From: a candidate division WOR-3 bacterium
GTDB taxonomy: Bacteria; Hydrothermota; Tepidihabitantia; SM23-42; JAOAFX01
DNA length: 64,000 nucleotides
Direction: 5' to 3'
NCBI GenBank assembly: GCA_037444665.1
Contig: JBBILZ010000001.1
Location: 25,434-89,433 of the forward strand
This document shows positions 19,671 through 37,698 of this stretch, in pieces. The position numbers were made by a program, and so were the translations under genes. How positions within the stretch are numbered: the first letter of the stretch is position 1; every line of letters starts with the position of its first letter. A model generated the notes under the pieces. The model made no database searches, had not been told where the DNA came from, and saw nothing but the letters and a program-made list of their open reading frames with translations.

Positions 19671-20975
19671 TTATGATTTTTTATAACAGAGCCTTGCCCA
19701 GTCAAATGCCTCAACAACATATTTGATAAATCTTCTCAACTCATTCTGATGTTTTCTGAATGCGGTATTAAGGATATTCTCACACAATTTTTGTTCTATT
19801 TCAAAATCTACATATGCAGTTTTGTATATACACAATAGATTATCAAAGATTATTTCAAAATCACCCCTGCTGAATTTTCTTAACAACACTTTATTTTTAA
19901 TAAATCTCGTGGTCCAATCATCTTCCGCGGGGGTTGTGGCAATTACCAGTAGAATATTTGTTTCTTTATAGGCATAGGGCGTGGGACGAACACGATTATG
20001 TAGCAGACGGTCATCAATCTTTTTCATATCTTTGTCATTCAAGGCAATACGTACCAACCCTTCAAGAAATGCCATACCCCTTTGTTGGAAATGATACTCC
20101 CAGATATGGTTCAACTCCTCAAATTCATCAATGATAATTACCAGACCACTGAGTCCAATCTGTTTTGTCAGATAACTGATACCACTGAGAATATAATTAT
20201 AAAAATCTGCAGCCGTAGAAAAATCATACAATGCCGGGATCTGCTGTCCACCCTTTATCCGATAAGGTGCTTCATGGTCTGTTGCATATTCTTTTGTAGA
20301 TTCGCCTTCTATCCATTGATAAAAGACTTCACTATATTTATCATTATCATCTTGCATATCTTTAATTTTTTTGAGGACCGGGGTTAAAAAACAATGGTCA
20401 GGCATCGGTATTTCAACTGATTGCCTCAATAAGTCACGGAATCCATATTCACAATTATCTTTGATAAATCTTAAACTATACACAAGTTCGTGATATATTT
20501 TTTTCGGCCGATACGGTGGGGTTTCCTGAATATGGAGCACACAATAGGTTGTAGCCACACCCTGTCTTAATGATAGATGCCGGAGGTATTCAGCAAGATG
20601 GGTCTTTCCTGAGCCATATTCACCCTCAATTAAAAAGACACCACCGCTCCCCTTTTTTAAATTATCCAGTGATTTCTGAAACAGGTCTATTTCATATGCC
20701 CGACCAAAGGTAAAGTGTTCAATACCCTGATATGGAACAACGCCCATTCTGAGCGCCTCAATTATCCTTCGGGACGAAATTCTGTCTAATTCTATTTCTT
20801 CAACATTCAGTTTTTTTAGCCATTTTGTCGGAAGCCAGAGGACCAATCCACTACGGAATTGGACGCGGGACTCAATATCGTTCCATCTTGTTTCAAGGAC
20901 CACGCCTTCACCAAAAATATTATGGACAACTATGTTAAAATTCTTCTTGTTCAACTTCTTCTTTTTCTTTATCAA
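19671..20975 (-). CDS. P-loop NTPase of unassigned family (paralog A)
   Basis: 434 aa. Walker A GEYGSGKTHL near residue 120 and Walker B LVIIIDEFEEL near residue 285. The ~160-aa spacing is atypical for AAA+. Its N-terminus overlaps the 3' end of paralog B by 41 nt. Confidence 0.6.
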   Translation of the reverse strand: MIKKKKKLNKKNFNIVVHNIFGEGVVLETRWNDIESRVQFRSGLVLWLPTKWLKKLNVEEIELDRISSRRIIEALRMGVVPYQGIEHFTFGRAYEIDLFQKSLDNLKKGSGGVFLIEGEYGSGKTHLAEYLRHLSLRQGVATTYCVLHIQETPPYRPKKIYHELVYSLRFIKDNCEYGFRDLLRQSVEIPMPDHCFLTPVLKKIKDMQDDNDKYSEVFYQWIEGESTKEYATDHEAPYRIKGGQQIPALYDFSTAADFYNYILSGISYLTKQIGLSGLVIIIDEFEELNHIWEYHFQQRGMAFLEGLVRIALNDKDMKKIDDRLLHNRVRPTPYAYKETNILLVIATTPAEDDWTTRFIKNKVLLRKFSRGDFEIIFDNLLCIYKTAYVDFEIEQKLCENILNTAFRKHQNELRRFIKYVVEAFDWARLCYKKS

Positions 20976-22191
20976 GGAGCTCTGCTACACGCGCCTTGAA
21001 TATTGTCATTGCTGTATTTTTGTCAATCGGTTGATTGTTCTCTCTTATCCTCTGAAATGCCTCAATTATTCCCACAACAAAAGTGCGGCGATAAAATATA
21101 TCAAGTATCTGTTTTTCAAGAACCGCTGCAATCATATTTTTTAGGGAGATTGAAAGGGTATTTGAATCAAATTCAAAATTATATGCAGATTCAAATACTT
21201 TTGCCAGCCTCTCCCCTAATTTTTGTAAAAATTCTTCTGGATTCATCTCTATCTTTTCCAGGTCAATTTTAACTCCGGTAGGATTTATCTTTGTAAAACT
21301 TGAGCGCAACCTCTGTTTCAATGCCTCATATACTCCACCTGTCCCTTCAAGCAAAAGATGTTCATCAGGGACCGCATAAAAGAATATAGCACCGGGCAAT
21401 CGGGAATTTCCACACTCGTCAATAATCTGGCGGAGATTGTCCAGGGCACGGCGTTTATCCTTTGTTGAAGAGATGCTCATACCCCTCTCTGCCTCATCAA
21501 ATAAGAAAATAATACCATTATAACCGATTATATTCACAAATTGGATAAAACTCCTTAGCATCCTGAAGGCAGTAGAGCGGTCTATCCTTTCTGCAATACG
21601 ATGTTGCAGTTTCAATTCTCTTACTATATCCTCACCCTTTAACCACTGGACTAAAGAATAAAATCTTTCCTCATCATCAGCCGCAAGGCTCTTGAGTGCT
21701 TCTTTAATACAATTTGTATAACTTGTGCTTTCAAGATTTTTTATGAGTGAAGCAAAATCTCTATCATCGCGAACACGATAATACCATTTACGAAGCAAAG
21801 CCTCTATACCTAATTCCCAGGGGCTCAGCATCTCCTGTTCTGTCAAAGGTGTGCTGATATTTGAAACAATCTTTTTATAGACCAATTCCAGCCTATCAAA
21901 TGGACATTCTGTAGCGCTCAATGATACATAACTTGTAATATAATTGTATTTCCAGGCAAGGTTTCTGATTGAATATAAAAAATGTGTCTTACCTCCACCA
22001 TAATTGCCCGTAATCAATTTAAATGTAGAGATGCTCTGCCTGCCCGGAAAATTAAAATAGTCATTTTCTAACACATTCAAATAAGGTTCAAGCCCGACTG
22101 TAAAATATTCAATGCCAAATTCAGGTGGCGTTCCAAAACCACCGAGTTTATCTATTATTCTTCTTGCAATCACTTGATTTATCCTGCTCAT
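20935..22191 (-). CDS. P-loop NTPase of unassigned family (paralog B)
   Basis: 418 aa. Walker A GNYGGGKTHF near residue 70 and Walker B IIFLFDEAERG near residue 230. Clear paralogy to A around both motifs. Confidence 0.6.
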   Translation of the reverse strand: MSRINQVIARRIIDKLGGFGTPPEFGIEYFTVGLEPYLNVLENDYFNFPGRQSISTFKLITGNYGGGKTHFLYSIRNLAWKYNYITSYVSLSATECPFDRLELVYKKIVSNISTPLTEQEMLSPWELGIEALLRKWYYRVRDDRDFASLIKNLESTSYTNCIKEALKSLAADDEERFYSLVQWLKGEDIVRELKLQHRIAERIDRSTAFRMLRSFIQFVNIIGYNGIIFLFDEAERGMSISSTKDKRRALDNLRQIIDECGNSRLPGAIFFYAVPDEHLLLEGTGGVYEALKQRLRSSFTKINPTGVKIDLEKIEMNPEEFLQKLGERLAKVFESAYNFEFDSNTLSISLKNMIAAVLEKQILDIFYRRTFVVGIIEAFQRIRENNQPIDKNTAMTIFKARVAELLDKEKEEVEQEEF

Positions 22192-22205
22192 ATCCTCTCA
22201 ACTCC

Positions 22206-22226
22206 TTACTACTTACTACCTACTAT
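22206..22226. repeat. TAC-tract repeat fragment (ttactacttactacctactat)
   Basis: Same motif as in the A, B and 57.66 kb copies. Overlaps the stop of the 22216..23097 gene and supplies the AAGGAG ribosome-binding site of NTPase B on the minus strand. Confidence 0.5.
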
Positions 22227-23097
22227 CCTTCTCTATCGCCATATATCCATAATAAGTCCCTTCACCTTCTTCATCATCAGGTATCCAGATTGCCTGTTTT
22301 TTATCTGTGGTTGCATCAAATGTTGCAACATATAGATGAATAGATTTCTGAGTGAATTCAGATTTTTTAAAAAGATACAAAAGATAAGCAAGTTCTACCC
22401 TTGAAAATTCACGATAGTTCTCTTTCCTGGGGTCAATAAAAAACTGCGGTGGTTGTTGTAAGAACACATACTCATCCAATACATCTACGAGAAGCACCTT
22501 TTCTCCATACGGTCGATTCAACAGGTTCAACCTTCTTTTGTATGCACTTTCAAGGTCAAGATAAAATTCCTTTGGGTCAAATTTTTTCTTTTTCAATTCT
22601 TCGTCAAATTTTTTTATAGTCTGATAGACTGTTTCCGGTTCAAGAGGGATTTTGGACTTTAATTTCTCAATCTGTGGTCCAAAATACAGGGCTGCCTCGC
22701 CAAATTCAAAGTTTAAAACAAGGGTATAAAAACCGACTCTTAATATTGGATACTGGCCCTTTATTATTCTGTTATCCTGTTGGAAAAGTGTTTTGAGTTT
22801 TTCACCGAATGCAAAGCGAAATTCCTCTTTTGCCTTTTCAACCTCTTTCTTTTCCTGATTGAGCCAGTCAATTAACTGGTTTTTCAAATCAAATTCTGCA
22901 AGGCTATTCGCAATTTTTAAGAGTTCAGAAACTCTTTTCTCCATAATATAGGCATTATCTACTGGACTCTCTTTTAATTTCGCATAGTCGTTTATCAATT
23001 TTGTTATTTTACCTGCTGCCTTTATCAATCCCTTGAATCCTTCTACAATCTCTTTCATTAGCAGCAATATAATAACCAAAAATATACCCGATGTCAA
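22216..23097 (-). CDS. hypothetical protein, first gene of the NTPase A/B operon
   Basis: 293 aa with no motif I recognise. A short hydrophobic N-terminus is followed by K/E-rich helical regions. Co-directional and close to NTPases B and A. Confidence 0.5.
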   Translation of the reverse strand: MTSGIFLVIILLLMKEIVEGFKGLIKAAGKITKLINDYAKLKESPVDNAYIMEKRVSELLKIANSLAEFDLKNQLIDWLNQEKKEVEKAKEEFRFAFGEKLKTLFQQDNRIIKGQYPILRVGFYTLVLNFEFGEAALYFGPQIEKLKSKIPLEPETVYQTIKKFDEELKKKKFDPKEFYLDLESAYKRRLNLLNRPYGEKVLLVDVLDEYVFLQQPPQFFIDPRKENYREFSRVELAYLLYLFKKSEFTQKSIHLYVATFDATTDKKQAIWIPDDEEGEGTYYGYMAIEKDSR

Positions 23098-23342
23098 TAA
23101 GTTTTTGGGAAAACAATCCTACTTTATCAAAGTTTTTTCAATCATTGACTTATTAAAATTTCTGGTTAAAATGGATTGCAAGGTTATTATGCAAACAAGC
23201 GAAAAGAGAACGAATAATCTATTCAACAGCAAGTTTTTTACCAAGGCAGATTGTAAAATCCAGAATCTCAGAAGAGAAAATTAAACCTTTTGAGACTATC
23301 AATGCAACACTCCTTTTTGCAGATATATCTGGATTCACGGCA

Positions 23343-25898
23343 ATGAGTGAAAAACTTGCCCGCTTAGGCAAAGAAGGGGCAGAAGAAGTAAACAAGATAA
23401 TCAACTCCTTTTTTGCTCCACTCATCAGTGTCGTGTATAAGTGGGATGGAGATATTTATCGGTTTGGTGGCGATGCTTTCTTAGCATTCTTCCCTGAAAT
23501 GCCGGCAAAAGAGTTATCAAGCAAAAGGGCACTGAAAGCGGGTATTGAGATTTCAAAATTTGTTAAAGCCCATGAAATAACAAAGACCAAAGTAGGCTCA
23601 TTCAAAATCAAAATCCATATCGGGTTGACAAAAGGCAAGATCTATTTTCAGGACCTGAAAAATAATTTCTTTCTTGGTGGCAGGATAGTAAATGATTTAA
23701 TGAAAATGATTGACCTTGCTGGTCCTGGTCAGATTGTTGTCAGCTCTGATGTTAAAAAAGAACTACCTGAAGTAAGTTTTACACCAAAAGAGGATACCTG
23801 GCAATATCTCGGAATGAAAATGAAACCGGCTAAAACACAGACAGAAATTAGTAAATTCTCCCCTAAAATATCTGATGATAAATTTACTACACTAAAAAAT
23901 TATATTCCTGATTGGTTACTTAAAAGGATTGAATTGAAACCACATTTTGACCACAAGGATGGAGAACATAGAAAGATTGCGGTCATCTTTTTGCATTTTG
24001 CCGGTATCCCCTATGATAAAAATCCTAAACAGGCGAGCGCAATGCTGGAGAGATTGTATAAAATTGTGAGCCAGTCAGTAGAAAAATACGACGGCTGGAT
24101 AAATGCAATTGATATCTATAAAGACAGCGAAAGATTTCTTGTGGTCTTTGGTTTTCCCAAAATTTATGAAGATGATGAAAAGAGGGCTGTTCTTTTTGCC
24201 TATGAAATTCTGAACCATCCTGAATTAAAACGGTTGCATTTGAGGGCAGGGATAAACTCGGGTTCAGTCTTTGCCGCACCCGTAGGCAGTGAATTGAGGC
24301 GTGAATATGCAACATTGGGTGATGCAGTAAATCTTGCAGCAAGGCTTGCTGCCAAAGCACAGAACCAAACAATTGTAGCAAGCGAACCCATATTTAATAA
24401 AACATTTGGACTCTTTGATTATGAATTTTTAGGTGAACAGGAATTTAAAGGGAAAAAGAAAAAGATTAAGACATATAAGATAATCAGAAAAAAACAGATT
24501 GAAAAGAAGGCACTGACAAGATGGCTCTCTGAAAGTGAAAAGATTGTTGGTAGAGATAAAGAAATTAAAAAGATGCAAAACCTTGTCAGTTTATGTTCTA
24601 CGGGAAAGGGACAGATTCTCGGAATTACTGGTGAGCCCGGGGTCGGAAAATCAAGACTGGTTCAGGAACTTATTAAATTTACAGAAAAGGCAGGATACTA
24701 TATTGTTAAAGGTGATTGCATTTCCTATGGCAGTGCCTTTTCATACCATCCCTGGGTAGAAATTTTAGAACAATTTTTTGATATTTCATCCAGCGATTCC
24801 TTAAAAATACGCACTAATAAAATAAAAGAGAAGTGCATCAGTGTTGATAAAAAACTTACTCAGTGGCTGCCAGTAATTGGCGAGGTTATGGGTGTTCCAT
24901 TCTTAGAAACATCACTCACAAAATACTTAGATGCCAAGATAAAAAAACAGCGTGTTTTTGATATTATCTTTGACTTCTTGAAATTTGTTGCCCGGACCAA
25001 ACCAGTAAATGTAATTATTGAAGACCTGCACTGGGCTGATACTGCTTCAATGGAACTTGTGAATTATATTGGTAGAAACATTGAGGATAAACAGATACTT
25101 TTAACACTGGTCTATCGTCCATTAAAGAAAAAAGAAGAATTTATGGAGAAGGGCTGGACAACTGAATTGAGTTTAAAAGAACTTTCAAAAGAAGAGAGTA
25201 TTGAGCTCGTTCAACTTTTACTCAATATCAAAAATATCCCTGATGACCTGAAAAAAATTATTATTGAAAAATCACAGGGGAACCCTTTTTATATTGAAGA
25301 ACTCGTAAAATCACTGATTGAGCAGGGCTATGTGATTGAAGAAAAAGGAACATGGAAATTTAAGGGTGATATAAAGAAACTTCAATTACCTGATACACTT
25401 GAGGCGGTTATCTTATCAAGGATTGACCGACTTGACCTGGAAGACCGTGATGTATTGCAGACCGCTTCAGTCCTGGGCAGGGAGTTTGATGAATTCTTGC
25501 TTGAACAAATATTCCCTGCGCCACAACTATTAAAAAAATCCCTTCATAATCTTGAGCGCCTTGATTTGATAAAACAGGAAGACAGCAAAGGAAAAAGGCA
25601 TTACTTTTTCAAACATATCCTCACCCAGGAGGTTGCATATGGTACCCTGTCTTTTGCCCGCAAACAAGAACTCCATCGCCAGACCGGCAGATTTATAGAG
25701 ACTGAACTTAAAGACCGAAAAGAAGAATTTCTGGGTCTGCTCTCTTACCACTTCTATGCGGGTGGAGATTATGATAAATCTCTGCTCTATTCAGTTGAAG
25801 CAGGTGAAAAGGCAAAAAAGGTCTATGCCAATGAAGAGGCAATAGAATTCTTCACCCGGGCAATTGATTCATACGAAAGATTGGAAGGAAAGATATAG
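23343..25898 (+). CDS. tandem class III nucleotidyl cyclase domains, STAND (AAA_16-type) ATPase and the start of a TPR region
   Basis: CHD1 carries the metal-binding Asp motifs (LLFADISGFT, GDAFLAFF), while CHD2 carries the N/R motifs (GDAVNLAARL). Walker A GITGEPGVGKSRL, then GNPFYIEEL and TASVLGREF, typical of MalT/AfsR-like ATPases. The conserved LLFADISGFT motif is encoded from about 23289, upstream of the first in-frame ATG/GTG/TTG at 23343, so the true 5' end is unresolved. Confidence 0.7.
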   Translation: MSEKLARLGKEGAEEVNKIINSFFAPLISVVYKWDGDIYRFGGDAFLAFFPEMPAKELSSKRALKAGIEISKFVKAHEITKTKVGSFKIKIHIGLTKGKIYFQDLKNNFFLGGRIVNDLMKMIDLAGPGQIVVSSDVKKELPEVSFTPKEDTWQYLGMKMKPAKTQTEISKFSPKISDDKFTTLKNYIPDWLLKRIELKPHFDHKDGEHRKIAVIFLHFAGIPYDKNPKQASAMLERLYKIVSQSVEKYDGWINAIDIYKDSERFLVVFGFPKIYEDDEKRAVLFAYEILNHPELKRLHLRAGINSGSVFAAPVGSELRREYATLGDAVNLAARLAAKAQNQTIVASEPIFNKTFGLFDYEFLGEQEFKGKKKKIKTYKIIRKKQIEKKALTRWLSESEKIVGRDKEIKKMQNLVSLCSTGKGQILGITGEPGVGKSRLVQELIKFTEKAGYYIVKGDCISYGSAFSYHPWVEILEQFFDISSSDSLKIRTNKIKEKCISVDKKLTQWLPVIGEVMGVPFLETSLTKYLDAKIKKQRVFDIIFDFLKFVARTKPVNVIIEDLHWADTASMELVNYIGRNIEDKQILLTLVYRPLKKKEEFMEKGWTTELSLKELSKEESIELVQLLLNIKNIPDDLKKIIIEKSQGNPFYIEELVKSLIEQGYVIEEKGTWKFKGDIKKLQLPDTLEAVILSRIDRLDLEDRDVLQTASVLGREFDEFLLEQIFPAPQLLKKSLHNLERLDLIKQEDSKGKRHYFFKHILTQEVAYGTLSFARKQELHRQTGRFIETELKDRKEEFLGLLSYHFYAGGDYDKSLLYSVEAGEKAKKVYANEEAIEFFTRAIDSYERLEGKI

Positions 25899-27027
25899 AT
25901 TGCGGACACAAGATTATCTGACAGAAGATAAATGTAGTTCAGTTAGACAAAGTGAACAAGTGAAAAGTATTCGCCAAAATCTATTAATAAAAGCCCTCAG
26001 AGGCAGAGCAGAGATTAATTATTTAACAGGAAAAATTGACGAAGGCATAAGAGATTATACACAGATACTCCAAGAATATGGTGAGAAGAATAGAGACGGA
26101 AATTTTTTTACAATGTTGGATACGATGATTCATATTGCTAATCTTCTGGCGGTTGGAAAGAGTGATTTTTCAGGGGCACAAACACTGATAAAAAAAGCAT
26201 TTAAAAAATTGGGCAAAAAAATGAATACCCGTACCTATGCCCGTGGTCTAAATTGTCTGGGTATAATTTTTAGGCGCCAAAGTAAATATGTTCAAGCACT
26301 AAGTCATTTCAGAAAAGCCTTACGCATATATCAGACTTTAAAAGAAAAAGAAGGTATCGCCGGTGTTTACTCTAACATTGCGCTTACCTATTTTAACAAA
26401 GGTAATCTTGATATTGCACTGAAATATTATAAAAAATGCTTCATTCTATGCCGAGATTCAAATGACCTGCCGACCATAGGAACAACCCTGGGCAATATCG
26501 GCCTTGTTTATCAGGAAAAGCGTCAATATGATAATGCTTTAAAGTACTATAAAGATTATTATGCACTGTCTCTAAAATCAGGCCATAAATTGGGTGTCAG
26601 TATTGCTTTAAGAGACATTGGCGCAATTTATGAAAAAAAATGTTTTTATGATAGGGCATTAGAATATTACAAGAAATCTCTTACTATAGCCGAAGAGATA
26701 AATGCACAAAGAGAAATCGGCATTGTTTCCGGACTCATTGGCTTCACATATAAAGAGCAGGGAGACTTTACCAATGCACTAAAATATTTGACCAGGGCGC
26801 TATCTATATTTGAAAAAATCTCTGATAAAAAACGGTTGGGTTTTGCTTTTATGCATTTAGGGATGGTCTATAGCGAACTCAAAAAATTTGAGGTAGCAAA
26901 ACAGTATCTCAATCAGGCTCAAAAAATTTTTGAAGATATCGGTGATAAAATATCTCTGTCCCGTGTTTTTACCTTGCTCTCAAAATTGGAGACCACACAG
27001 GGGAACGATAGTTACAATGAAAGATAA
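25864..27027 (+). CDS. TPR-repeat protein, paralog 1 (5' overlaps the cyclase ORF in another frame, 3' cut by an in-frame TAA)
   Basis: 387 aa of 34-residue TPR units (e.g. GNIGLVYQEKRQYDNALKYYK). The homology to paralogs 2 and 3 begins near SIRQNLLIKALRGRAE, with a possible GTG start around 25953. A TAA at 27025-27027 is followed in frame by the conserved C-terminal module. Confidence 0.55.
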   Translation: MIHTKDWKERYRLRTQDYLTEDKCSSVRQSEQVKSIRQNLLIKALRGRAEINYLTGKIDEGIRDYTQILQEYGEKNRDGNFFTMLDTMIHIANLLAVGKSDFSGAQTLIKKAFKKLGKKMNTRTYARGLNCLGIIFRRQSKYVQALSHFRKALRIYQTLKEKEGIAGVYSNIALTYFNKGNLDIALKYYKKCFILCRDSNDLPTIGTTLGNIGLVYQEKRQYDNALKYYKDYYALSLKSGHKLGVSIALRDIGAIYEKKCFYDRALEYYKKSLTIAEEINAQREIGIVSGLIGFTYKEQGDFTNALKYLTRALSIFEKISDKKRLGFAFMHLGMVYSELKKFEVAKQYLNQAQKIFEDIGDKISLSRVFTLLSKLETTQGNDSYNER

Positions 27028-27045: not shown

Positions 27046-27258
27046 TTGAAGACTCGTGTGAGACTTGAATATGCAAAATCTCTTTACGAACTTGGGAAAG
27101 TATACCTAACTTGTCGTGAAACGTGGAACGTGAAAGGTAAAACGGCGAAAAAGGCGTTACAATATTTAAAAGAAGCAGAAAAGATTTTCAAAAAAGCAGG
27201 TGCTGAATTGTGGTTGAAGAAAACCAGCGACTTAATAAATCAATTACCCAATTATTAA
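27046..27258 (+). other. orphaned C-terminal module of TPR paralog 1, same frame and separated by a single in-frame stop
   Basis: The 70-aa ORF VRLEYAKSLYELGKVYL...AGAELWLKK matches the C-terminus of paralog 3 (LELAKSLYELGKVYL...AGAELWLKK). Its frame is identical to 25864..27027. Confidence 0.5.
27073..27221 (+). repeat. ~149-bp direct repeat, copy 1 (3' module of the TPR paralogs), about 85-90% identical to 29999..30148
   Basis: Aligned by eye: gcaaaatctctttacgaacttgggaaagtata...gcaggtgctgaattgtggtt. Confidence 0.7.
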
Positions 27259-28722
27259 ATGAAGGTGGATGCAAGAAGAGACCTTTTATTACGTGCATTA
27301 GAAGGAAAGGGTGCGGTTTTAATGTTGATTGGAAAATTTGATGCAGCTGCGAGCCTTTATCATCAATTGGCAAATAAGGGGCAGGATAATCCACTGATCG
27401 TAGCAAGGGCAGAAAGATCAATTGCTGATGTTTACCTGAAACAGGGCAAATACGATGAAGCTCTAAAAATTCTTGAAGGCAAAAAAGAAAATATCATCGG
27501 TGATTCAGAAAGTGGAGCAATTGAAAAGGCGTTAATTCATATATCTAAAGGTGGGGTTTACAGGTATAAAGGAGAATTAAGAAAAGCAACTAAAGAAATA
27601 AACAATGGATTAAAAATCTTATCTTTTATTCACAAAGAAACTAAGTTAAAAAAGAGATTTATTATCAAAAAAGCGCAGGCAACCGCCTTCAATAACCTGG
27701 CTTCAATTTCTCTGCTTAAAGGTAATTATAAAAAAGCAATAAAATTGTATAACAAATCATTGAAAATAATAAAAGATTTAAACGAAAAACAGGCAATTGG
27801 AACAACAAACGGTAATCTGGGCCTAATTTTTTTGGATAAAGGCGAATATTCAAAGGCAATTAATCTATTTATGAACCATATAAAAATATCAAAAATGATT
27901 GGTGATAAACGAGGCCTTAGTTTGGCAATTGGGAATTTAGGTTTGGTCTATGAAAATATGGGCAATTATAATAAGGCGATTGGGTTATTTACCAGATATC
28001 TTAAAATCGCTCAAGAGTTAGGAGATGAGCGTGGGATAGGGACTGCCTGTGGTAATTTAGGGCTGGCGTATAGAGACAAACAACAATATTCTGAAGCAAT
28101 TAAATTTCTCTTAAAAGATTTGGTCATTTCCGAAAAAATAGGCGACAGATACGGTTCCGGTATCTCTTGCTTAAATCTGGCTTTTGCTTATCTGGAAAAA
28201 GATAGTTTTAATGATGCAAAAAAATATTTATTCAGATCATTTAAAATATTTAAGAATATGGGTGATACATTTGATATGATTTATGTTAATCTGGGTTTAG
28301 CACTGTTAGGTTTATTGAAAATTAAAATGGGAACTGCGTCGCGACTTAGTATTGGGAAAACATTAAAATTTATTAAAAACGCACTAAAAACTGCAAAGGA
28401 GATGAATTCTAAAACAGCAATAGCAGATTGTTATTTTATATTTGCAAAAGCATATGTAGCCATTTCCAACTTCAAAAATGCTCAAATATATTTTAAAAAA
28501 GCCATCAAATATTTCAATAATCTGAAGTCAAAAAGGATGCTCGCTGATTCATACTTTGAATACGCAAAAATGCTAAAAAACTGGGAATCACCGAGACTTG
28601 AAGGTACCAGGAAATTTGAACAAAATTTAAAAAGGGCATTAAAGATATATAATGAATTAAGCTTGCCACAAAAAATCAAAGAAGTAAAAAAAGTAATGGA
28701 ACAAAACTTTGCTAATGATTAA
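27259..28722 (+). CDS. TPR-repeat protein, paralog 2
   Basis: 487 aa. N-terminus RRDLLLRALEGKGAVLMLIGKFDAA is homologous to paralogs 1 and 3, and the body is many TPR units. The TAAATG junction with the preceding ORF suggests coupling. Confidence 0.7.
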   Translation: MKVDARRDLLLRALEGKGAVLMLIGKFDAAASLYHQLANKGQDNPLIVARAERSIADVYLKQGKYDEALKILEGKKENIIGDSESGAIEKALIHISKGGVYRYKGELRKATKEINNGLKILSFIHKETKLKKRFIIKKAQATAFNNLASISLLKGNYKKAIKLYNKSLKIIKDLNEKQAIGTTNGNLGLIFLDKGEYSKAINLFMNHIKISKMIGDKRGLSLAIGNLGLVYENMGNYNKAIGLFTRYLKIAQELGDERGIGTACGNLGLAYRDKQQYSEAIKFLLKDLVISEKIGDRYGSGISCLNLAFAYLEKDSFNDAKKYLFRSFKIFKNMGDTFDMIYVNLGLALLGLLKIKMGTASRLSIGKTLKFIKNALKTAKEMNSKTAIADCYFIFAKAYVAISNFKNAQIYFKKAIKYFNNLKSKRMLADSYFEYAKMLKNWESPRLEGTRKFEQNLKRALKIYNELSLPQKIKEVKKVMEQNFAND

Positions 28723-30169
28723 AACCGGAAATTTAAGAAAACAGTTGCTAATCGACGCATTAGAAGGAAGAGCCAATGTATATAGACTTATAGGCGAATA
28801 CGATGAAGCAATACAAGACTATCAGAAGGCTATATTCTGGTGTAAAAAGGGAACAAAACCAGACTCCCTTTTAATAGCAAATCTAATAATTCACCTTGCT
28901 GACATCTTTCGAGAAGGCAAAAATGATTATGATAAGTCAGCGATGCTTATTAAAAAATTATTTAACAGGATGAGTAAAAAAAATAAAAATGCGCTTTATC
29001 CACTCGGTTTAAATATCCTTGGTATTATTCTCACCCACAGAGGAAGGTATAAACAAGCACTGGAATATCATAAAAAGGCACTCAGTATTAATAAAAAATT
29101 AAAGGACAAAACAGAAACAGGGAAAACATATTTGGTTATTGGAGACATTTATTATTATACAGGTGACTTCACAAATGCATTGAAATACTACAAAAAATCG
29201 GCTACAATATTAAAAACAACAGGCAATAAAACCAATCTTGATATAGCTTATAATAATATCGGTTCTATTTATTATGACCAGGGTAAATCTTTTATGGCGT
29301 TAAAATATTACAAAAGATCTCTTAACATATCTGAAAAGATAGAATCCAAACTTGATATTGGCGTTACTTGTGGCAATATTGGAACAGTATATCATAGTAT
29401 AGGCAACCTTGATATTGCCTTGAAATATTATGAGAAATCTATTAACATATTAAAGCAGATTGATTATAAAATAGGAATTACCACAGGTTACAACAACCTT
29501 GGTGCTGCATATTACGATAAAGGTAGATTCCATACCGCATTGAGATACTATAGAAAATCTTTAAGTACATTTCAGGAGATAGGTTATTATTTGGGGATTG
29601 GACTCGTTTATTTGAAGATGGGTCAGGCTTATACAGGATTAAGAAATTTCAGCCGAGCGGATAAATATCTTAAATTAGCAGAAAAAATATTTATGGGGAA
29701 TCCCAATAAAAAAATTCTATCAAAAATTTATATAGGTTTCTCGGAATTATACTACGGAAAAAAAGATTACGAAGGTGCATTTAAACATGCAAACAAGGCA
29801 CTCTCTTTAACAAGAGAAACAAAAATAATAGAACAGAAGATTTCGGCATTAAGACTAATGGGGAAGGCAATAAAGTGCCTGACGCATAATACAGGGCACA
29901 CGATGCAGGATAAAGCAATACCATCCACTAAAAAAGCGATTTCTTATCTTGAAGAATCAATTGCCCTTGCGCGGAGATACAATATGAAACTGGAACTTGC
30001 AAAATCTCTTTACGAACTTGGGAAAGTATATTTACCTTCTCGTGAAACGGAAAATGCGAAAGGCGAAACGGAGAAAAAGGCGTTACGATATTTAAAAGAA
30101 GCAGCAGAAATTTTCAAAAAAGCAGGTGCTGAATTGTGGTTAAAGAAAGTAAAAAACTTAATCGCTTAA
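28709..30169 (+). CDS. TPR-repeat protein, paralog 3
   Basis: 486 aa. N-terminus RKQLLIDALEGRANVYRLIGEYDEA and a C-terminal module shared with the paralog-1 tail. Overlaps the end of paralog 2. Confidence 0.7.
   Translation: MLMIKTGNLRKQLLIDALEGRANVYRLIGEYDEAIQDYQKAIFWCKKGTKPDSLLIANLIIHLADIFREGKNDYDKSAMLIKKLFNRMSKKNKNALYPLGLNILGIILTHRGRYKQALEYHKKALSINKKLKDKTETGKTYLVIGDIYYYTGDFTNALKYYKKSATILKTTGNKTNLDIAYNNIGSIYYDQGKSFMALKYYKRSLNISEKIESKLDIGVTCGNIGTVYHSIGNLDIALKYYEKSINILKQIDYKIGITTGYNNLGAAYYDKGRFHTALRYYRKSLSTFQEIGYYLGIGLVYLKMGQAYTGLRNFSRADKYLKLAEKIFMGNPNKKILSKIYIGFSELYYGKKDYEGAFKHANKALSLTRETKIIEQKISALRLMGKAIKCLTHNTGHTMQDKAIPSTKKAISYLEESIALARRYNMKLELAKSLYELGKVYLPSRETENAKGETEKKALRYLKEAAEIFKKAGAELWLKKVKNLIA
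29999..30148 (+). repeat. ~149-bp direct repeat, copy 2
   Basis: See 27073..27221. Confidence 0.7.
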
Positions 30170-30263: not shown

Positions 30264-30291
30264 TTGACATAGCGAATTTAATCTATATAAT
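30264..30291 (+). promoter_or_regulatory. sigma70-type promoter TTGACA-N16-TATAAT for the FBP aldolase/phosphatase gene
   Basis: Perfect hexamers at 30264-30269 and 30286-30291. AAGGAGG ribosome-binding site at about 30314, ATG at 30327. Confidence 0.6.
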
Positions 30292-30326: not shown

Positions 30327-31412
30327 ATGGCGATTACTTTGAGCATTATTAAGGCAGATATTGGTGGGTATGTGGGGCACTCAAGCATGCATCCCAATAT
30401 AATTGCCCGTGCAATTCAATTGCTTGATGCCCAGAAAAATAAGGGCACAATTGTTGACTTCCATGTTTCGCATTGTGGCGATGACCTGGAACTCATTATG
30501 AGCCATCGGCTCGGCAATGATTCTAATGAGATTCATAAACTTGCCTGGGACATATTTGTTGAATGCACAAATGTCGCAAAAGAATTAAAACTTTATGGTG
30601 CGGGTCAGGACCTTCTTTCTGATGCCTTCTCTGGTAATGTCAAAGGTATGGGACCAGGCTGTGCTGAAATGACCTTTGAAGAACGTAAAAGTGAACCGGT
30701 TATTGTCTTTGCCGCAGATAAAACCTCTCCTGGTGCCTGGAACTATCCTTTATTCAAAATGTTTGCTGACCCATTCAATACAATTGGACTGGTCATTGAC
30801 CCGAGCATGCACGATGGATTTGTTTTTGAAGTGCACGATGTTTTCCATGACAAGAATGCCAAAATGAACACACCCGAAGATATGTATGACCTTTTGTGTC
30901 TCATTGGTGCATCTGAACATTATATTATAAAGAATGTCTATAAAAAAGATGGCACCATTGCTGCGACAACTTCAACCCAGAAAGTAAATTTACTTGCAGG
31001 AAGATATGTAGGTAAAGATGACCCGGTAATGATTGTGCGCTGTCAGAGTGGTCTACCTGCAGTTGGTGAGGTACTTGAGCCATTCTCATTCCCTTATATG
31101 GTAACAGGCTGGATGCGTGGCTCACACTGGGGACCATTTATGCCAGTTTCAGTGGAACAAGCAAACCCCACAAGGTTTGACGGGCCACCAAGGCTAATTG
31201 CACTGGGCTTTCAAATATCAAATGGAATGCTTGTTGGACCAAGGGATATGTTTGCTGACCCGAGTTATGACCATACCAGGCAGAAGGCAAATGAGATTGC
31301 TGATTATATCAGAAGGCATGGTCCATTTGAACCACAAAGGTTACCTCTTACGGAAATGGAATATACTACACTTCCTCAGGTGCTCAATAAATTAAAAGAC
31401 CGGTTTAAATAG
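30327..31412 (+). CDS. fbp: fructose-1,6-bisphosphate aldolase/phosphatase (bifunctional, archaeal-type class V FBPase)
   Basis: 361 aa. N-terminus ITLSIIKADIGGYVGHS is the hallmark of the FBP aldolase/phosphatase family. Confidence 0.85.
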   Translation: MAITLSIIKADIGGYVGHSSMHPNIIARAIQLLDAQKNKGTIVDFHVSHCGDDLELIMSHRLGNDSNEIHKLAWDIFVECTNVAKELKLYGAGQDLLSDAFSGNVKGMGPGCAEMTFEERKSEPVIVFAADKTSPGAWNYPLFKMFADPFNTIGLVIDPSMHDGFVFEVHDVFHDKNAKMNTPEDMYDLLCLIGASEHYIIKNVYKKDGTIAATTSTQKVNLLAGRYVGKDDPVMIVRCQSGLPAVGEVLEPFSFPYMVTGWMRGSHWGPFMPVSVEQANPTRFDGPPRLIALGFQISNGMLVGPRDMFADPSYDHTRQKANEIADYIRRHGPFEPQRLPLTEMEYTTLPQVLNKLKDRFK

Positions 31413-31517: not shown

Positions 31518-32576
31518 ATGAATAAAATATTATTTAAATATTTCAGTTTTCAGCATTATATTATCTCAGAAAAAAAAGCGCTGGTGATTTTTTTATTATC
31601 AATAATCACCCTCTGCTCTGCTCAGATCTGGCAACCTGGTGCTACTGGATATACATTTTTGAAATTGGGTATTGGTGTTCGTCCAGTGGCAATGGGTAAT
31701 GCATTTACTGCTTTGAGCGATGATGGCAATGCAGTATTCTGGAACCCGGCAGGGCTCGGCGTTAATAACAGTTATTATATTTCGGGTATGGGAATGTCGC
31801 ATCTTGGTTTTATCCAGTATTATAATCTAACTTCATCAATCTTTTTAGGCAAAAAGGCCGGCTCACTGGGCATTGGTATTTGCTACCTGACTGCAAAAGA
31901 TACAAGGCGTGATGAGGCAGGCAATGAATCTGAAGATTTCCGTAATTCTGATATGCTGTTAAATTGTGGTTATGGAAAGAGTATTGGCAAAAAAAATCAA
32001 ATCTCATTTGGTGGTGGTGCAAAAGTTGTTTACAGTCGGCTGGAGAGTGTGAGTGCCTATGGATTCCTGGGTGATTTTGGTCTAATACTACATCCTGTTA
32101 AATTTATTTATTTAGGAACCACAATCAAAAATTTAGGCACACCAAGAAAGTTTATTGAAAAGTGGGAATATCCACCAGTAAATTTTCGGCAGGGGCTTGC
32201 CTTAAAAATACCATTCGGTCAAAGCCACTGGGCACTGAGCATTGATTATTCTCTATATCCAGACTATATACCAACATTTTCTATTGGTAGTGAAGTTCAC
32301 ATTCGTGAACCAAAGATAATGCAACAAACTACCAAAGCAATATTTGGTCAGGAAACAATGATTTCGGGATTTTCCTTGATGGCTGGTTATCAGACTGGTT
32401 ATCAGGACCTGGGCTGGTCAGGTTTAACTTTTGGTTTTTCTTTAGAGATAATGATAGGCTCGGGACTATTTCTTGATATTGGTGCAGTAGCTCTCTCCTA
32501 CGGATATTTAGGCTATTCTGAGCGTATCGGTATTGGATTAAATTATGCGCCAGAGTTAAAGAAGGCAAAGAGTTAG
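31518..32576 (+). CDS. outer-membrane beta-barrel protein, PorV/PorQ-like (T9SS-associated family)
   Basis: 352 aa with a signal peptide. N-terminal motif VAMGNAFTALSDDGNAVFWNPAGLG, which I recall as the signature of the PorV/PorQ/UPF0164 barrel family, followed by an alternating beta pattern. Confidence 0.5.
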   Translation: MNKILFKYFSFQHYIISEKKALVIFLLSIITLCSAQIWQPGATGYTFLKLGIGVRPVAMGNAFTALSDDGNAVFWNPAGLGVNNSYYISGMGMSHLGFIQYYNLTSSIFLGKKAGSLGIGICYLTAKDTRRDEAGNESEDFRNSDMLLNCGYGKSIGKKNQISFGGGAKVVYSRLESVSAYGFLGDFGLILHPVKFIYLGTTIKNLGTPRKFIEKWEYPPVNFRQGLALKIPFGQSHWALSIDYSLYPDYIPTFSIGSEVHIREPKIMQQTTKAIFGQETMISGFSLMAGYQTGYQDLGWSGLTFGFSLEIMIGSGLFLDIGAVALSYGYLGYSERIGIGLNYAPELKKAKS

Positions 32577-34192: not shown

Positions 34193-34843
34193 TTATTCTA
34201 AGTGATAGTCAGTGAGACTGAACTCACCATTACTATTCTTGAATCTAACCAGACCTATACCCGGTGCATAGTATTCTTCTAAATATATCTGTTGGGAAAT
34301 AGTTGAATCTGGTGTCGCAACAGACTCAGATATTGAGATAATAACCTTATAGACCTCGCCATAGAGTTCATCATCTTGATAGTCTGAAACCAATCCCTCT
34401 ATCAAATATCTTGCCTTTATCCATTCACCAAAAAAATCAAGTGAATCTGAAAGCGAATCAATGAATCTATTTCCAGTGACCAATGGCAGTTCAAGTCTGG
34501 TAATATAACCCTGTAAAATTGTATAAATAGAGCCACCATAATTGTGCGTTATCTCTATATATTCTTTGATGCCTTTGATATCCTTAGAAAAATAATGGAA
34601 TTCACCAGAAGCATTGAAAGGATAAACTTCCCTTTGTAATAATGTATCCACTGGTTCAACTGTAATACTCACAATCTCGGGTTTGTATAAATCATTATTT
34701 GCGTATCGCCACCAATTCCCTTCTTTTACTGGAAAGTATTCACTGCCCGAACGCTCAATAATATTATTCTTGCAGGAATTAGAAGAGATTATTATTATAC
34801 ACACTAAAACAGTTCTTATCAGCAATTTAAAATTCATAACCAA
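34193..34843 (-). CDS. hypothetical lipoprotein
   Basis: 216 aa, signal peptide ending ...ISSNSC. No recognisable domain. Confidence 0.5.
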   Translation of the reverse strand: MVMNFKLLIRTVLVCIIIISSNSCKNNIIERSGSEYFPVKEGNWWRYANNDLYKPEIVSITVEPVDTLLQREVYPFNASGEFHYFSKDIKGIKEYIEITHNYGGSIYTILQGYITRLELPLVTGNRFIDSLSDSLDFFGEWIKARYLIEGLVSDYQDDELYGEVYKVIISISESVATPDSTISQQIYLEEYYAPGIGLVRFKNSNGEFSLTDYHLE

Positions 34844-35291
34844 TCCCTAAATTTATGCCCAGGCTACCAGCTTGGGCTTTAAAATCAGTTATACCACTGT
34901 AATAGAACATAGGATAGATATTCAGTGCCTCATAATGGAAATTTATGAGAAAACCGATTGTGTAATTGAATCCTATACCCCACTCCTTATTTTTGTTCAA
35001 TGTTCTTGATACATAGCCACCACCAAATTCTAAGAATGGTGATATGCGCCAGTTCATTTTTTTTATCAAAAGTGTAACACCATAGTTACTAAAAGAATAT
35101 CCCGGATTCTTTCCCTGATAATAAGAACCAAACAGCCCGAGGTCTAAATAGACATTATGATTTAAATCTTCTTTACCGATAAATGCTTTAAAAGATAGAC
35201 CGTTGTTCAACTCATTATCAAGCCCGATGATTGGTTGATTAAAACCTGCCTCAACACCTGCATGTATACTCAATATTACAATCAATAACAT
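34827..35291 (-). CDS. small outer-membrane beta-barrel protein (hypothetical)
   Basis: 154 aa. Signal peptide, alternating aromatic/Gly pattern and a terminal ...GIGYEF. Confidence 0.5.
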   Translation of the reverse strand: MLLIVILSIHAGVEAGFNQPIIGLDNELNNGLSFKAFIGKEDLNHNVYLDLGLFGSYYQGKNPGYSFSNYGVTLLIKKMNWRISPFLEFGGGYVSRTLNKNKEWGIGFNYTIGFLINFHYEALNIYPMFYYSGITDFKAQAGSLGINLGIGYEF

Positions 35292-35814: not shown

Positions 35815-35833
35815 TATGCACAATTTTTGTGCA
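35815..35833. promoter_or_regulatory. candidate operator: 19-nt perfect palindrome ATGCACAATTTTTGTGCAT about 80 nt upstream of the FN3-lipoprotein operon
   Basis: Core identical to 14776..14794. Confidence 0.45.
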
Positions 35834-35911
35834 TTATTTATGAAAAACTCCCGAAATTTCAAGGCTTTAACCTGGCACAGGATTTGCATATTATATTGGC
35901 AGAGGTGCCAA

Positions 35912-36682
35912 ATGAAAAGAATAAAAGATTCCCTTCAATTGATTCTGGTCGCATCCGGGCTAATTTTTTCGCCCTGCTGTTATGAAGAAGCAGACAATGA
36001 GCCACCTGCAGTTCCCAGAGGTTTGAATTCCATTACTGGTGACGAACAAGTGATGCTCACCTGGTATCAGAATACTGAACCTGACCTTGCTGGTTATAGG
36101 GTCTTTCGCAGTCCTGCACCAGAAGGACCTTATTATCTTATCGGTGAAACAAACTTAGATTATTTCCTTGATTATGGTTTAATGAACGGACAAACCTATT
36201 TCTATGCAATCTCTGCTTATGACATACATAATAACGAAAGTGAACTTTCTTATGAGACGGTCTATGATACACCCAGACCCGAAGGATTTGATGAAAAAAT
36301 CTTTGATTATACTGAATACCCTGCGTATGCTGGTTGGGACTTCAGCAATTATACAGTAGTTCCATACAATTATTCAAACTGTGATTTTTATTTTGGTTAT
36401 GACGATTACAATAATTCTTATTATTTCTTCATTGGTAAGCCCGGTGGATTGATTCAGGATATGGGTTATACCTATTCTTTTGATGAGATTGGTTATGCGC
36501 CTGATGATGGTTGGTCTCCAACCGGCATTGCACAAGCCATTGAAGGCCATACCTATGTTATCTGGACCTGGGACAACCATTTTGCCAAAGTCCGTATCAC
36601 ATCAATAAAATCTGATTATGTCGTGTTTGACTGGGCATACCAGGTTGACCCGGGTAACCCGGAACTGGTGAGGAAAAAATGA
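35912..36682 (+). CDS. secreted or lipoprotein-like protein with a fibronectin type III domain
   Basis: Start set at MKRIKDSLQLILVASGLIFSPCC, which has an AGAGGTG ribosome-binding site. The ORF track starts at 35816, inside the operator. FN3-like segment PPAVPRGLNS...LTWYQNTEPDLAGYRVFRS...TYFYAISAYD. Confidence 0.55.
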   Translation: MKRIKDSLQLILVASGLIFSPCCYEEADNEPPAVPRGLNSITGDEQVMLTWYQNTEPDLAGYRVFRSPAPEGPYYLIGETNLDYFLDYGLMNGQTYFYAISAYDIHNNESELSYETVYDTPRPEGFDEKIFDYTEYPAYAGWDFSNYTVVPYNYSNCDFYFGYDDYNNSYYFFIGKPGGLIQDMGYTYSFDEIGYAPDDGWSPTGIAQAIEGHTYVIWTWDNHFAKVRITSIKSDYVVFDWAYQVDPGNPELVRKK

Positions 36683-36723
36683 AAAATAATCTGCATTTTT
36701 GCAGAGCAACAAAGGAGGTTAAA

Positions 36724-37698
36724 ATGAAACGCTTATTTTTACTCACCCTTGCCGCAATCCCACTATTTGCATTCAGTGTCAATTTCATCTACTGCGATTA
36801 TGATTATGATGATGACTACTGGAACGATGAATACTGGTATCCTGAACCCGATTATTATGATGACTACTGGGTCTATTACCCACATGGCTATTATTGTGTT
36901 TACTATGTGTGGTACCATCCCTGGTGGTGGGATTGGTATTGGTGGCATTGCCATTGGTGCCACCATTTTGACTGGCACTTTTTCCGTGCTGGTTTCTATG
37001 TTGTCTGGTATGAAGACGGATGCTGGTGGTTCAGACCGAGATATGGCAGGTGGGTACGATACAAAGTTCCCTATGCCTATAATGAATTCAGATATAAAGC
37101 AAGGTCCTATGGAGTCAATCTTCCAGAAAAGCCCACAAGGGAAATTAATATTCCTTATAATGAAAAAGAGATTCAACGCCTGACAAAAGAAAAGGACCCA
37201 CAACTATATGCACGCATAGAAAAAGAGTACAGGTCAGGGAACCTGGACAGAATGAAGCAAGAATACGAAACAAAAGTAAAAAGAGAAATTGCAGTGAAGA
37301 ATGAAGAATACAGAAAAACAAAATTACAAAACCCGGCTGATGAACGATATAATACAGGCAAGGATGTAAATAATAAAACAATTGACCGAAGAAAATCTGA
37401 TTCTTATAATGATGATAGGCAAAAGTCAGATTATAATGAGTCAAGAATAATAAAGAAGTCTAAAAATGTGCCTGACAATGATACTGAAACTCCTGAAAGA
37501 TATGACGAATCTGATAATAGAAAATACGAGCAAAAAAAGAATTACACAGCACCAGACAAGTCTAAACAAACTGAACGCGGAGACGAATACAACGCACCAA
37601 AAACTCCAAAAACACCAATCAGAAACCTACCCCCACCTGACCAGGAACAGGAAAAAAGAACGGTTAAAAAACAGAGTGTGCAAAAATCAAGGAGATAA
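36724..37698 (+). CDS. secreted Trp/Tyr/His/Asp-rich low-complexity protein with a Lys/Glu/Arg-rich C-terminal tail (novel)
   Basis: Start at MKRLFLLTLAAIPLFAFS with an AAGGAGG ribosome-binding site. The ORF track starts at 36679, which overlaps the upstream stop in an ATGA. About 100 residues with roughly 16 Trp, 28 Tyr, 7 His and 4 Cys (e.g. YHPWWWDWYWWHCHWCHHFDWHFF). An antisense ORF exists but lacks these supports. Confidence 0.55.
   Translation: MKRLFLLTLAAIPLFAFSVNFIYCDYDYDDDYWNDEYWYPEPDYYDDYWVYYPHGYYCVYYVWYHPWWWDWYWWHCHWCHHFDWHFFRAGFYVVWYEDGCWWFRPRYGRWVRYKVPYAYNEFRYKARSYGVNLPEKPTREINIPYNEKEIQRLTKEKDPQLYARIEKEYRSGNLDRMKQEYETKVKREIAVKNEEYRKTKLQNPADERYNTGKDVNNKTIDRRKSDSYNDDRQKSDYNESRIIKKSKNVPDNDTETPERYDESDNRKYEQKKNYTAPDKSKQTERGDEYNAPKTPKTPIRNLPPPDQEQEKRTVKKQSVQKSRR

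Follow-up and report, generated by a model that had tools for sequence, protein, structure and literature searches.

A probable bacterial homologue of soluble adenylyl cyclase with separately encoded TPR proteins in a candidate division WOR-3 bacterium

Cyclases resembling the soluble adenylyl cyclase of mammals (sAC, ADCY10) were reportedly described from Chloroflexus aurantiacus by Kobayashi, Buck and Levin in 2004 (Dev Genes Evol 214:503), with two catalytic domains and a long sAC-like C-terminal extension, and one of these enzymes is said to have responded to bicarbonate. In another report, which cites that paper, Chloroflexus cyclases are presented as bicarbonate-activated relatives of sAC (PMC11006738). 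Full-length sAC consists of the C1 and C2 catalytic domains and, towards the C-terminus, of regulatory regions, among them an autoinhibitory motif and a predicted P-loop STAND domain (PMC12802110), with the P-loop at residues 516-523 and putative tetratricopeptide repeat (TPR) motifs (PMC3475452). Its residues Asp47, Asp99 and Thr405 serve catalysis and adenine binding, and Lys95 and Arg176 form the bicarbonate site (PMC12250328). Here, a candidate gene of this type, together with the TPR genes that follow it, was analyzed in a candidate division WOR-3 bacterium (GenBank assembly GCA_037444665.1, contig JBBILZ010000001.1, positions 25,434 to 89,433 of the forward strand). The window is this whole stretch of 64,000 nucleotides, and all positions below refer to it.

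The gene was best explained as a bacterial sAC/ADCY10 homologue, in which two cyclase homology domains (CHDs) and a STAND NTPase share one chain with one catalytic site and a predicted cyclase activity; a probability of about 0.8 was assigned to this reading. Its features are listed below, with residues numbered in a repaired protein of 902 amino acids (aa), from which the effect of a single extra base near the 5' end was removed.

23208..25898, + strand: main frame of the cyclase-STAND gene, coding for residues 7-902 after repair; 95% identity to P0001 (902 aa)
23277..23816, + strand: CHD1 (C1-like); best PDB sequence match is human sAC C1, residues 13-191, E=3e-15
23322-23324 and 23472-23474, + strand: CHD1 metal-binding D45 (FADISGFT) and D95 (GGDAFLAFF), equivalent to sAC Asp47 and Asp99
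23685-23708, + strand: CHD1 Asn/Arg positions (IVNDLMKM), N168 and K172
23955..24491, + strand: CHD2 (C2-like); best PDB sequence match is sAC C2, residues 264-418, E=2e-12
23994-23996, + strand: H269, which together with R315 occupies the degenerate CHD2 metal positions in place of two Asp
24105-24107 and 24309-24311, + strand: CHD2 base-recognising positions Ala306 and Ala374, equivalent to sAC Lys334 and Thr405
24330-24332 and 24342-24344, + strand: retained CHD2 transition-state residues N381 and R385 (GDAVNLAARL), equivalent to sAC Asn412 and Arg416
24543..25100, + strand: STAND P-loop NTPase (AAA_16), from Pfam, collinearity with an animal ADCY10-like protein, and structural matches to Apaf-1 and 6mfv
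24630-24653, + strand: Walker A, GEPGVGKS, residues 481-488
25011-25040, + strand: Walker B, VIIEDLHWAD, residues 608-617
25101..25652, + strand: helical and winged-helix-like part of the STAND module, from the secondary structure of the model
25278-25304 and 25461-25478, + strand: GNPFYIEEL, aligned with GIPYYCEEL of the ADCY10-like protein, and TASVLG
25653..25895, + strand: four-helix C-terminal arm, roughly two TPR-like repeats, from the model; end of the polypeptide in this clade

Two stretches of the protein matched the Guanylate_cyc family in Pfam (PF00211; 80.3 bits against a cut-off of 21.9), and the best sequence match of each CHD in the PDB was human sAC, C1 to C1 and C2 to C2. Residues 7-902 were modelled with AlphaFold2 from 62 aligned sequences, with a mean predicted local distance difference test score (pLDDT) of 83.9 and a predicted TM-score (pTM) of 0.71. 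When this model was compared with the PDB by Foldseek, the 24 top matches were all single-chain structures of the human sAC C1-C2 core, with a target-normalised TM-score of 0.75-0.78, a root-mean-square deviation of 3.4-4.1 Å and an identity of 22-23% over about 465 columns. The sAC core also outranked the soluble domains of AC9 and AC8. In the modelled structure, CHD1 and CHD2 are thus packed together in one chain as in the sAC C1-C2 pseudo-heterodimer. The single-chain pseudo-heterodimer proposed by the original prediction, which was made from the sequence alone, was therefore recovered by both the profile search and the model. The prediction had compared the arrangement to mammalian C1/C2 adenylyl cyclases; the division of labour between the domains held, but the closest counterpart was the soluble enzyme and not the membrane cyclases.

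The catalytic residues were followed through 116 aligned sequences (the window protein plus 115 homologues), onto which the sAC residues were mapped. The sAC sequence used for this mapping was checked against the PDB alignment coordinates and by its 97% identity to macaque ADCY10. The equivalents of the C1 metal-binding Asp47 and Asp99 were invariant in 116/116 sequences, as were those of the C2 transition-state Asn412 and Arg416. The mirror-image positions were degenerate: in C2, the position matching Asp47 was His in 83/116 and Asn in 25/116 sequences, and that matching Asp99 was an almost invariant Arg, while in C1 the Asn equivalent was retained in 70/116 sequences and the Arg equivalent was variable. 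As had been read from the DNA, CHD1 of the window protein keeps both Asp and the Asn without the Arg, and CHD2 has lost both Asp and keeps the GDAVNLAARL motif. The full chemistry set of two Asp, one Asn and one Arg therefore occurs once per protein, spread over both CHDs, and neither CHD is complete alone. Orthologues with two complete CHDs were not seen among the 116 sequences, and this family-wide complementary degeneracy implies one catalytic site per chain.

The same data bear on whether the tandem module is an enzyme at all. It could instead be a nucleotide-binding sensor, the ATP-sensing head of a STAND regulator, comparable to a cyclase-like ATP-binding protein of Pseudomonas aeruginosa. 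Such a structure, annotated as a 473-aa 'Class III adenylyl cyclase-like ATP-binding protein' (PDB 6yii), was found at Foldseek rank 38 with a target-normalised TM-score of 0.56, and the base-recognising residues were lost in the clade of the window protein. However, the sAC core was a far better structural match than 6yii, and the invariance of the two Asp, the Asn and the Arg, which extends to the clade lacking the base-recognising residues, would be hard to explain without catalysis. A sensor without enzymatic activity was thus considered very unlikely.

Under the sAC-homologue reading, C1 would supply the metal-binding D45 and D95 and C2 the transition-state N381 and R385 to a single catalytic site, and the degenerate mirror-image site would be regulatory at most. 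The product would be a 3',5'-cyclic nucleotide, most likely cyclic AMP (cAMP); this assignment is less certain than usual because the sub-clade carries Ala/Ala at the positions of the adenine-recognising Lys334/Thr405 of sAC. The STAND NTPase may gate the cyclase, either as a nucleotide-dependent switch or as a module for oligomerisation.

In the same chain, the cyclase core is followed by a STAND P-loop NTPase, which includes a winged-helix region and a short TPR arm. The AAA_16 match (PF13191) reached 80.6 bits against a cut-off of 32.6, and the C-terminal half of the model matched the Apaf-1 apoptosome (5juy, E=2e-10) and a STAND-TPR protein (6mfv, E=9e-9) in Foldseek, with low TM-scores for a query that was a multi-domain model. 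A helix-turn-helix (HTH), LuxR or other DNA-binding domain was not found by Pfam in the protein, nor an HTH in the downstream TPR proteins. Hence, the predicted order of an AAA_16/STAND module and TPRs with no DNA-binding domain was borne out, except that the TPR sensor array is not in the same protein but in separate genes after a native stop codon.

The relationship to sAC extends beyond the catalytic core. By BLASTP, an ostrich ADCY10-like protein (P0139) gave one collinear alignment (residues 7-703 against 2-659, E=6e-42), which spanned Walker A (GEPGVGKS against GVTGSGKS), the Walker B region (VIIEDLHWADTAS against FVIDNAHYIDSAS) and the GNPFYIEEL/GIPYYCEEL motif. A search with sAC C1-C2 recovered animal ADCY10 entries with PF13191 after PF00211, and also bacterial C1-C2-AAA_16 proteins in Chloroflexota, Cyanobacteria and Sericytochromatia, with 28-30% identity over about 95% of the query. 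The window protein and human sAC share the order of C1, C2, P-loop STAND NTPase and TPR-like region, as well as the division of Asp47/Asp99 and Asn412/Arg416 between C1 and C2. They differ in size (about 900 aa against 1610 aa for sAC, with no haem-domain region seen here) and in the residues discussed below, and their identity is just about 22-23%. The long C-terminal helical/TPR region that sAC carries in the same polypeptide is also missing, as the window protein ends after about two TPR-like repeats.

A search with the repaired protein returned a large family of 895-925 aa, mostly from candidate division WOR-3, with P0001 (95% identical and exactly 902 aa) as its best match. Relatives from Chloroflexota were 33-36% identical over 95-99% of the query; these differ in having the TPRs fused (1360-1470 aa) and in retaining Lys (or Gly) with Thr at the base-recognising positions. 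At least 579 relatives were confirmed in a scan of species-representative genomes. Among the matches listed, those of 2.5-2.9 kb, a length sufficient for two CHDs and the STAND module, included several Chloroflexota lineages, Actinomycetota, Binatia, Acidobacteria, Bacteroidota, Gemmatimonadales and others. Judging from these matches, the tandem-cyclase-STAND architecture is a known and widespread bacterial kind. The layout had been regarded as unusual for a protein producing cyclic nucleotide monophosphates (cNMPs), a view that did not hold, as the same order is already present in full-length sAC and in many bacterial phyla. Two traits of this lineage are noteworthy: TPR sensor genes that have been split off, and a base pocket with Ala/Ala.

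Mycobacterial cyclase-ATPase-LuxR proteins of the Rv0386 type and the TIGR03903 family (TOMM kinase/cyclase fusion) also have a class III CHD followed by AAA_16/STAND and helical repeats. They differ in having a single CHD, which must homodimerise, and a LuxR HTH or an N-terminal kinase, neither of which is present in the window protein. In NCBIfam, just a sub-threshold partial match to TIGR03903 was found, aligned to residues 308-889 with 244 bits, far under the cut-off of 705.75 bits.

Among class III cyclases, ATP is canonically specified by Lys with Asp or Thr, and GTP by Glu with Cys or Ser. The window protein has neither pair, but Ala306 and Ala374. The Lys/Thr combination was the commonest in the family (64/116), the outgroup state and that of the family ancestor, while Ala/Ala was found in 29/116 sequences, including the window protein, and formed a derived crown clade in a neighbour-joining tree. 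Within this clade both sites varied (A/T, T/T, S/T, L/T, R/T and K/A), while the chemistry residues remained constant. This sequence pattern points to a base pocket that was remodelled or relaxed.

One consequence could be that the crown clade contains active enzymes that are no longer specific for cAMP, and that use GTP or pyrimidine nucleoside triphosphates, or are promiscuous, through the replacement of both Lys and Thr by Ala. Some class III cyclases, such as mycobacterial Rv0386 and Rv1900c, caution against this reading, as they lack the canonical residue pair and still make mainly cAMP. It would agree with the confinement of the variation to these two sites in a derived clade whose metal and transition-state residues are invariant, and with the contact of Thr405 to adenine in sAC (PMC12250328). 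The strongest similarities in a PADLOC scan were to Pycsar pyrimidine cyclases, though via the generic cyclase fold only. A new base-specificity code or a positive determinant for another base was not identified in the Ala/Ala clade, and the variation within it (A/T, T/T, S/T, R/T) resembled relaxed constraint more than a new code. A changed substrate was thus regarded as rather unlikely, and cAMP was retained as the most likely product of the sAC homologue.

The bicarbonate site was also altered. The position of Lys95 is Arg91 in the window protein, a conservative replacement shared by 75/116 sequences, and that of the Arg176 switch is Met171, with Lys172 adjacent. Because Met stands at the Arg176 position here and the family varies there, human-type bicarbonate control is not to be assumed. 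The Lys95 and Arg176 residues are likewise missing from sACs of non-mammalian animals (PMC12867704).

The 5' end of the gene required separate examination, and the features of this region are as follows.

23145..23172, + strand: sigma-70-like promoter match (TTGACT, 16-nucleotide spacer, TAAAAT; 10/12), directly 5' of the native start
23189..23206, + strand: native ATG and the six first codons (MQTSEK/R), from orthologue N-termini and DNA alignments
23202..23206, + strand: single extra base, located by DNA alignment against L001 and L007 (the latter from GCA_037443805.1), syntenic contigs of two relatives in which the gene is intact

The promoter match is weak evidence; the consensus scan found 3 sites against 1.4 expected. 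On the + strand, the main frame follows a TAA at 23154-23156, opens at 23157 and extends as far as the TAG at 25896-25898. Its earliest ATG, GTG or TTG is the ATG at 23343, which gives a product of 851 aa and lies 3' of the codons for LLFADISGFT (23313-23339). The ATG at 23189 is in another frame that stops after 31 codons, and a run of six T (T6) is present at 23234-23239. These positions and frames were all as the original prediction had described. It had proposed a disrupted 5' end with the T6 run as a possible frameshift site; the frame problem of one nucleotide is real, but it does not lie at the T6 run. Orthologues 900-910 aa long, whose N-termini are intact, fixed both the start and the position of the indel, and they begin with MQTSEKERIFYSMASFLPRQIV (P0001) and ..MQTSERERIFYSMASFLPRQIV (P0241). 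In the window, MQTSEK is read from the ATG at 23189 in one frame and continues as RERIIYSTASFLPRQIV in the main frame, which places the native start at 23189, after a Shine-Dalgarno-like AAGG at 23179-23182. The native ATG and its first six codons are out of frame with the remaining gene owing to the extra base. At this site, seven codons past the native ATG, the window reads GCGAAAAGAGAA, L007 reads GCG-AAAGAGAA and L001 reads GCGAAAA-AGAA; by alignment, the extra base would be either an expansion of a homopolymer from A3 to A4 or an inserted G. Deletion of one T from the T6 run would also give an open reading frame (ORF) of 902 aa, but this candidate was rejected, as the T6 run is identical in the window, L001 and L007, and the indel lies at 23202-23206.

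As judged from these alignments, the gene start is broken in the assembly by one extra base, which reflects an assembly error or else a very recent mutation that inactivates the gene. If the latter, the gene would be a recent pseudogene with a dead cyclase, in which the ATG at 23189 yields 31 codons and the ATG at 23343 yields a product without the first metal-binding Asp. The extra base is indeed in the deposited assembly, for which NCBI called the truncated 851-aa protein P0242 (23343-25898), and a canonical in-frame start is absent between the stop at 23154 and position 23343. It is also the sole uncompensated coding indel of one nucleotide in the roughly 20 kb that are syntenic with the two relatives, hence the assembly is not generally error-ridden. 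In contrast, a single-base change in a short A/G-rich run is a typical consensus or polishing error, and the start is intact in the two close relatives, which were annotated at 902 and 908 aa. The remaining 2688 nucleotides of the 2.7-kb gene contain no further indels and have a ratio of nonsynonymous to synonymous substitution rates (dN/dS) of 0.09 and 0.07 against these two relatives, and the downstream TPR genes are intact as well. A long-standing pseudogene is excluded by this sequence comparison, and a recent one was considered possible, if doubtful. For annotation, this means that the 851-aa product from the ATG at 23343 was called because of the single-base indel upstream and is an artefact of it, and that the T6 run should not be 'corrected'.

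At the 3' end, all close orthologues terminate in ...SYE(R/K)LEGKI, and by this comparison the stop at 25896-25898 is native. A fused cyclase-TPR protein, made through a second frameshift or a programmed +1 shift in the overlap of the frames at 25846-25898, was rejected because the orthologues stop at ...EGKI, the next gene has its own TTG start with GGAAGG, and the same two genes were called in L001 and L007. Gene prediction instead placed the long TPR array in separate, translationally coupled genes (T1, T2 and T3), each starting exactly at the fission point.

25900..27027, + strand: TPR gene T1, 375 aa; TTG start two bases past the cyclase stop, with GGAAGG upstream
27046..27258, + strand: 70-codon ORF in the T1 frame, homologous to the C-terminal end of T3
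27259..28722, + strand: TPR gene T2, 487 aa; 25-28% identical to T1 and T3, with the same junction motif; absent from the two closest relatives
28709..30169, + strand: TPR gene T3, 486 aa; 35% identical to T1, with the same junction motif; body absent from the two closest relatives

All three were strong matches to TPR_12/TPR_MalT in Pfam, and they are old paralogues rather than recent copies, since their mutual identity is just 25-37%. TPR genes directly followed the cyclase gene in all orthologous contexts examined (L001, L002/L003, L004/L005 and L007), while a fused TPR array was found in some family members (1226-1459 aa) and in the Chloroflexota relatives. In the fused proteins, the sequence continues past ...AIESYEKLE... 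into a motif like ELFISVLKARGEIYNLIGKYNKGIEEF, and T1 begins where these relatives continue. The separate proteins open with this junction motif (LLIKALRGRAEINYLTGKIDEGIRDY in T1, LLLRALEGKGAVLMLIGKFDAAASLY in T2 and LLIDALEGRANVYRLIGEYDEAIQDY in T3), which indicates that the STAND sensor arm was split off at a fixed point. Fused forms were nested among split forms in the neighbour-joining tree, so fusion and fission have each recurred. Acting in trans, T1, T2 and T3 may serve as sensors or adaptors that lengthen the short C-terminal arm. An identical T2 gene is present on a contig of sequencing run SRR11582170, whose sample may include the same strain.

T1 ends at a TAA (27025-27027) common to relatives, and the small ORF behind it is, by its homology to the end of T3, the cut-off tail of T1. 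The in-frame TAA and the small ORF recur in L001 and L007 and were therefore inherited; T1 is tolerated in truncated form or else made as a protein in two pieces. Recoding of the stop codon was rejected, as the rest of the window consists of dense, intact ORFs under code 11. In addition, a segment at 27223-29984, covering T2 and most of T3, is missing from L001 and L007. A direct repeat some 170 nucleotides long and 85-90% identical (27059-27222 and 29985-30148, the T1 and T3 'tails') flanks the segment, and the single tail of L007 looks chimeric. Recombination between the tails therefore probably removed T2-T3 from the two relatives.

Several points weigh against the sAC-homologue reading. 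As assembled, the gene cannot yield the full protein, and the product from the ATG at 23343 would lack D45. With Ala306/Ala374 in the window protein and Ala/Ala in 29/116 sequences, ATP specificity or even efficient turnover is not assured, and the Arg176 bicarbonate switch is replaced. The cyclase activity of the WOR-3 family is a prediction from sequence and model, and the action of the TPR proteins in trans is suggested by gene order and the junction motif only. Moreover, the STAND region of human sAC has no demonstrated role, and the tested nucleotides had no isoform-specific effect on full-length sAC (PMC12802110).

The surroundings of the locus included the following features.

19671-23097, - strand: divergent three-gene cluster with a pair of paralogous BrxD/SngB-like ATPases (PF10923) of 434 and 418 aa, and a protein of 293 aa without a family match
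30264-30291: perfect sigma-70-type promoter match (12/12), preceding the gene below
30327-31412: class V fructose-1,6-bisphosphatase (FBPase; PF01950, E=4e-182)

The genes next to the cyclase were thus TPR proteins, BrxD-like ATPases and the FBPase, and the neighbours were of housekeeping type: a class II aminoacyl-tRNA synthetase, an ABC transporter, McsB, UvrC, the FBPase and a glycosylase. The promoter match at 30264-30291 would mark the end of the cyclase-TPR operon. Class V FBPase is typical of archaea and of deep-branching, often thermophilic bacteria. Further downstream, ORFs of 150-350 aa without a Pfam match occur at 31518-32576, 34193-35291 and 35816-37698, and are syntenic with L001 and L007. 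The BrxD/SngB-like cluster may be a defence-type module. A functional link between this trio and the cyclase was rejected, as it adjoins the cyclase in the closest relatives only, while Mfd and capsule genes are found upstream in L002 and L004.

The original prediction had likened the protein to Avs-type systems. In this case, the TPRs would sense a phage protein and the cyclase, in an Avs-like or Pycsar-like manner, would release a cyclic-nucleotide alarm. An N-terminal enzymatic domain, a STAND NTPase and a repeat sensor do form the Avs layout, PycC shares the class III cyclase fold, and BrxD/SngB-like ATPase genes lie divergently upstream. However, no Avs model was matched in the PADLOC scan, and its only matches were PycC models on the cyclase domains (best 69.5 bits), which reflect just the generic class III fold that PycC shares. 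A cNMP-binding effector or phosphodiesterase gene was not found among the scanned neighbours of the locus, and the neighbours vary among orthologues, with no conserved defence context. The gene is also a conserved single-copy orthologue under purifying selection across a phylum-level family, unlike the patchy distribution of defence genes. The comparison with Avs was thus not sustained; an Avs- or Pycsar-type role has no support, and defence was judged highly improbable for this gene.

Under the preferred sAC-homologue reading, an uncultured bacterial phylum has conserved the full architecture of human sAC (C1, C2 and STAND). The crown clade could be doubly rebuilt, with the Ala/Ala pocket leading to another or several cNMPs and with the split TPR paralogues serving as interchangeable sensors on one core. 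This combination seems improbable; if true, it would represent a modular, multi-input STAND signalling enzyme. The Ala/Ala clade provides a natural test of the contribution of the Lys/Thr pair, and a compact homologue of 900 aa, possibly thermophilic and with its TPRs in proteins of their own, could serve as a tractable model of STAND control of a sAC-type cyclase.

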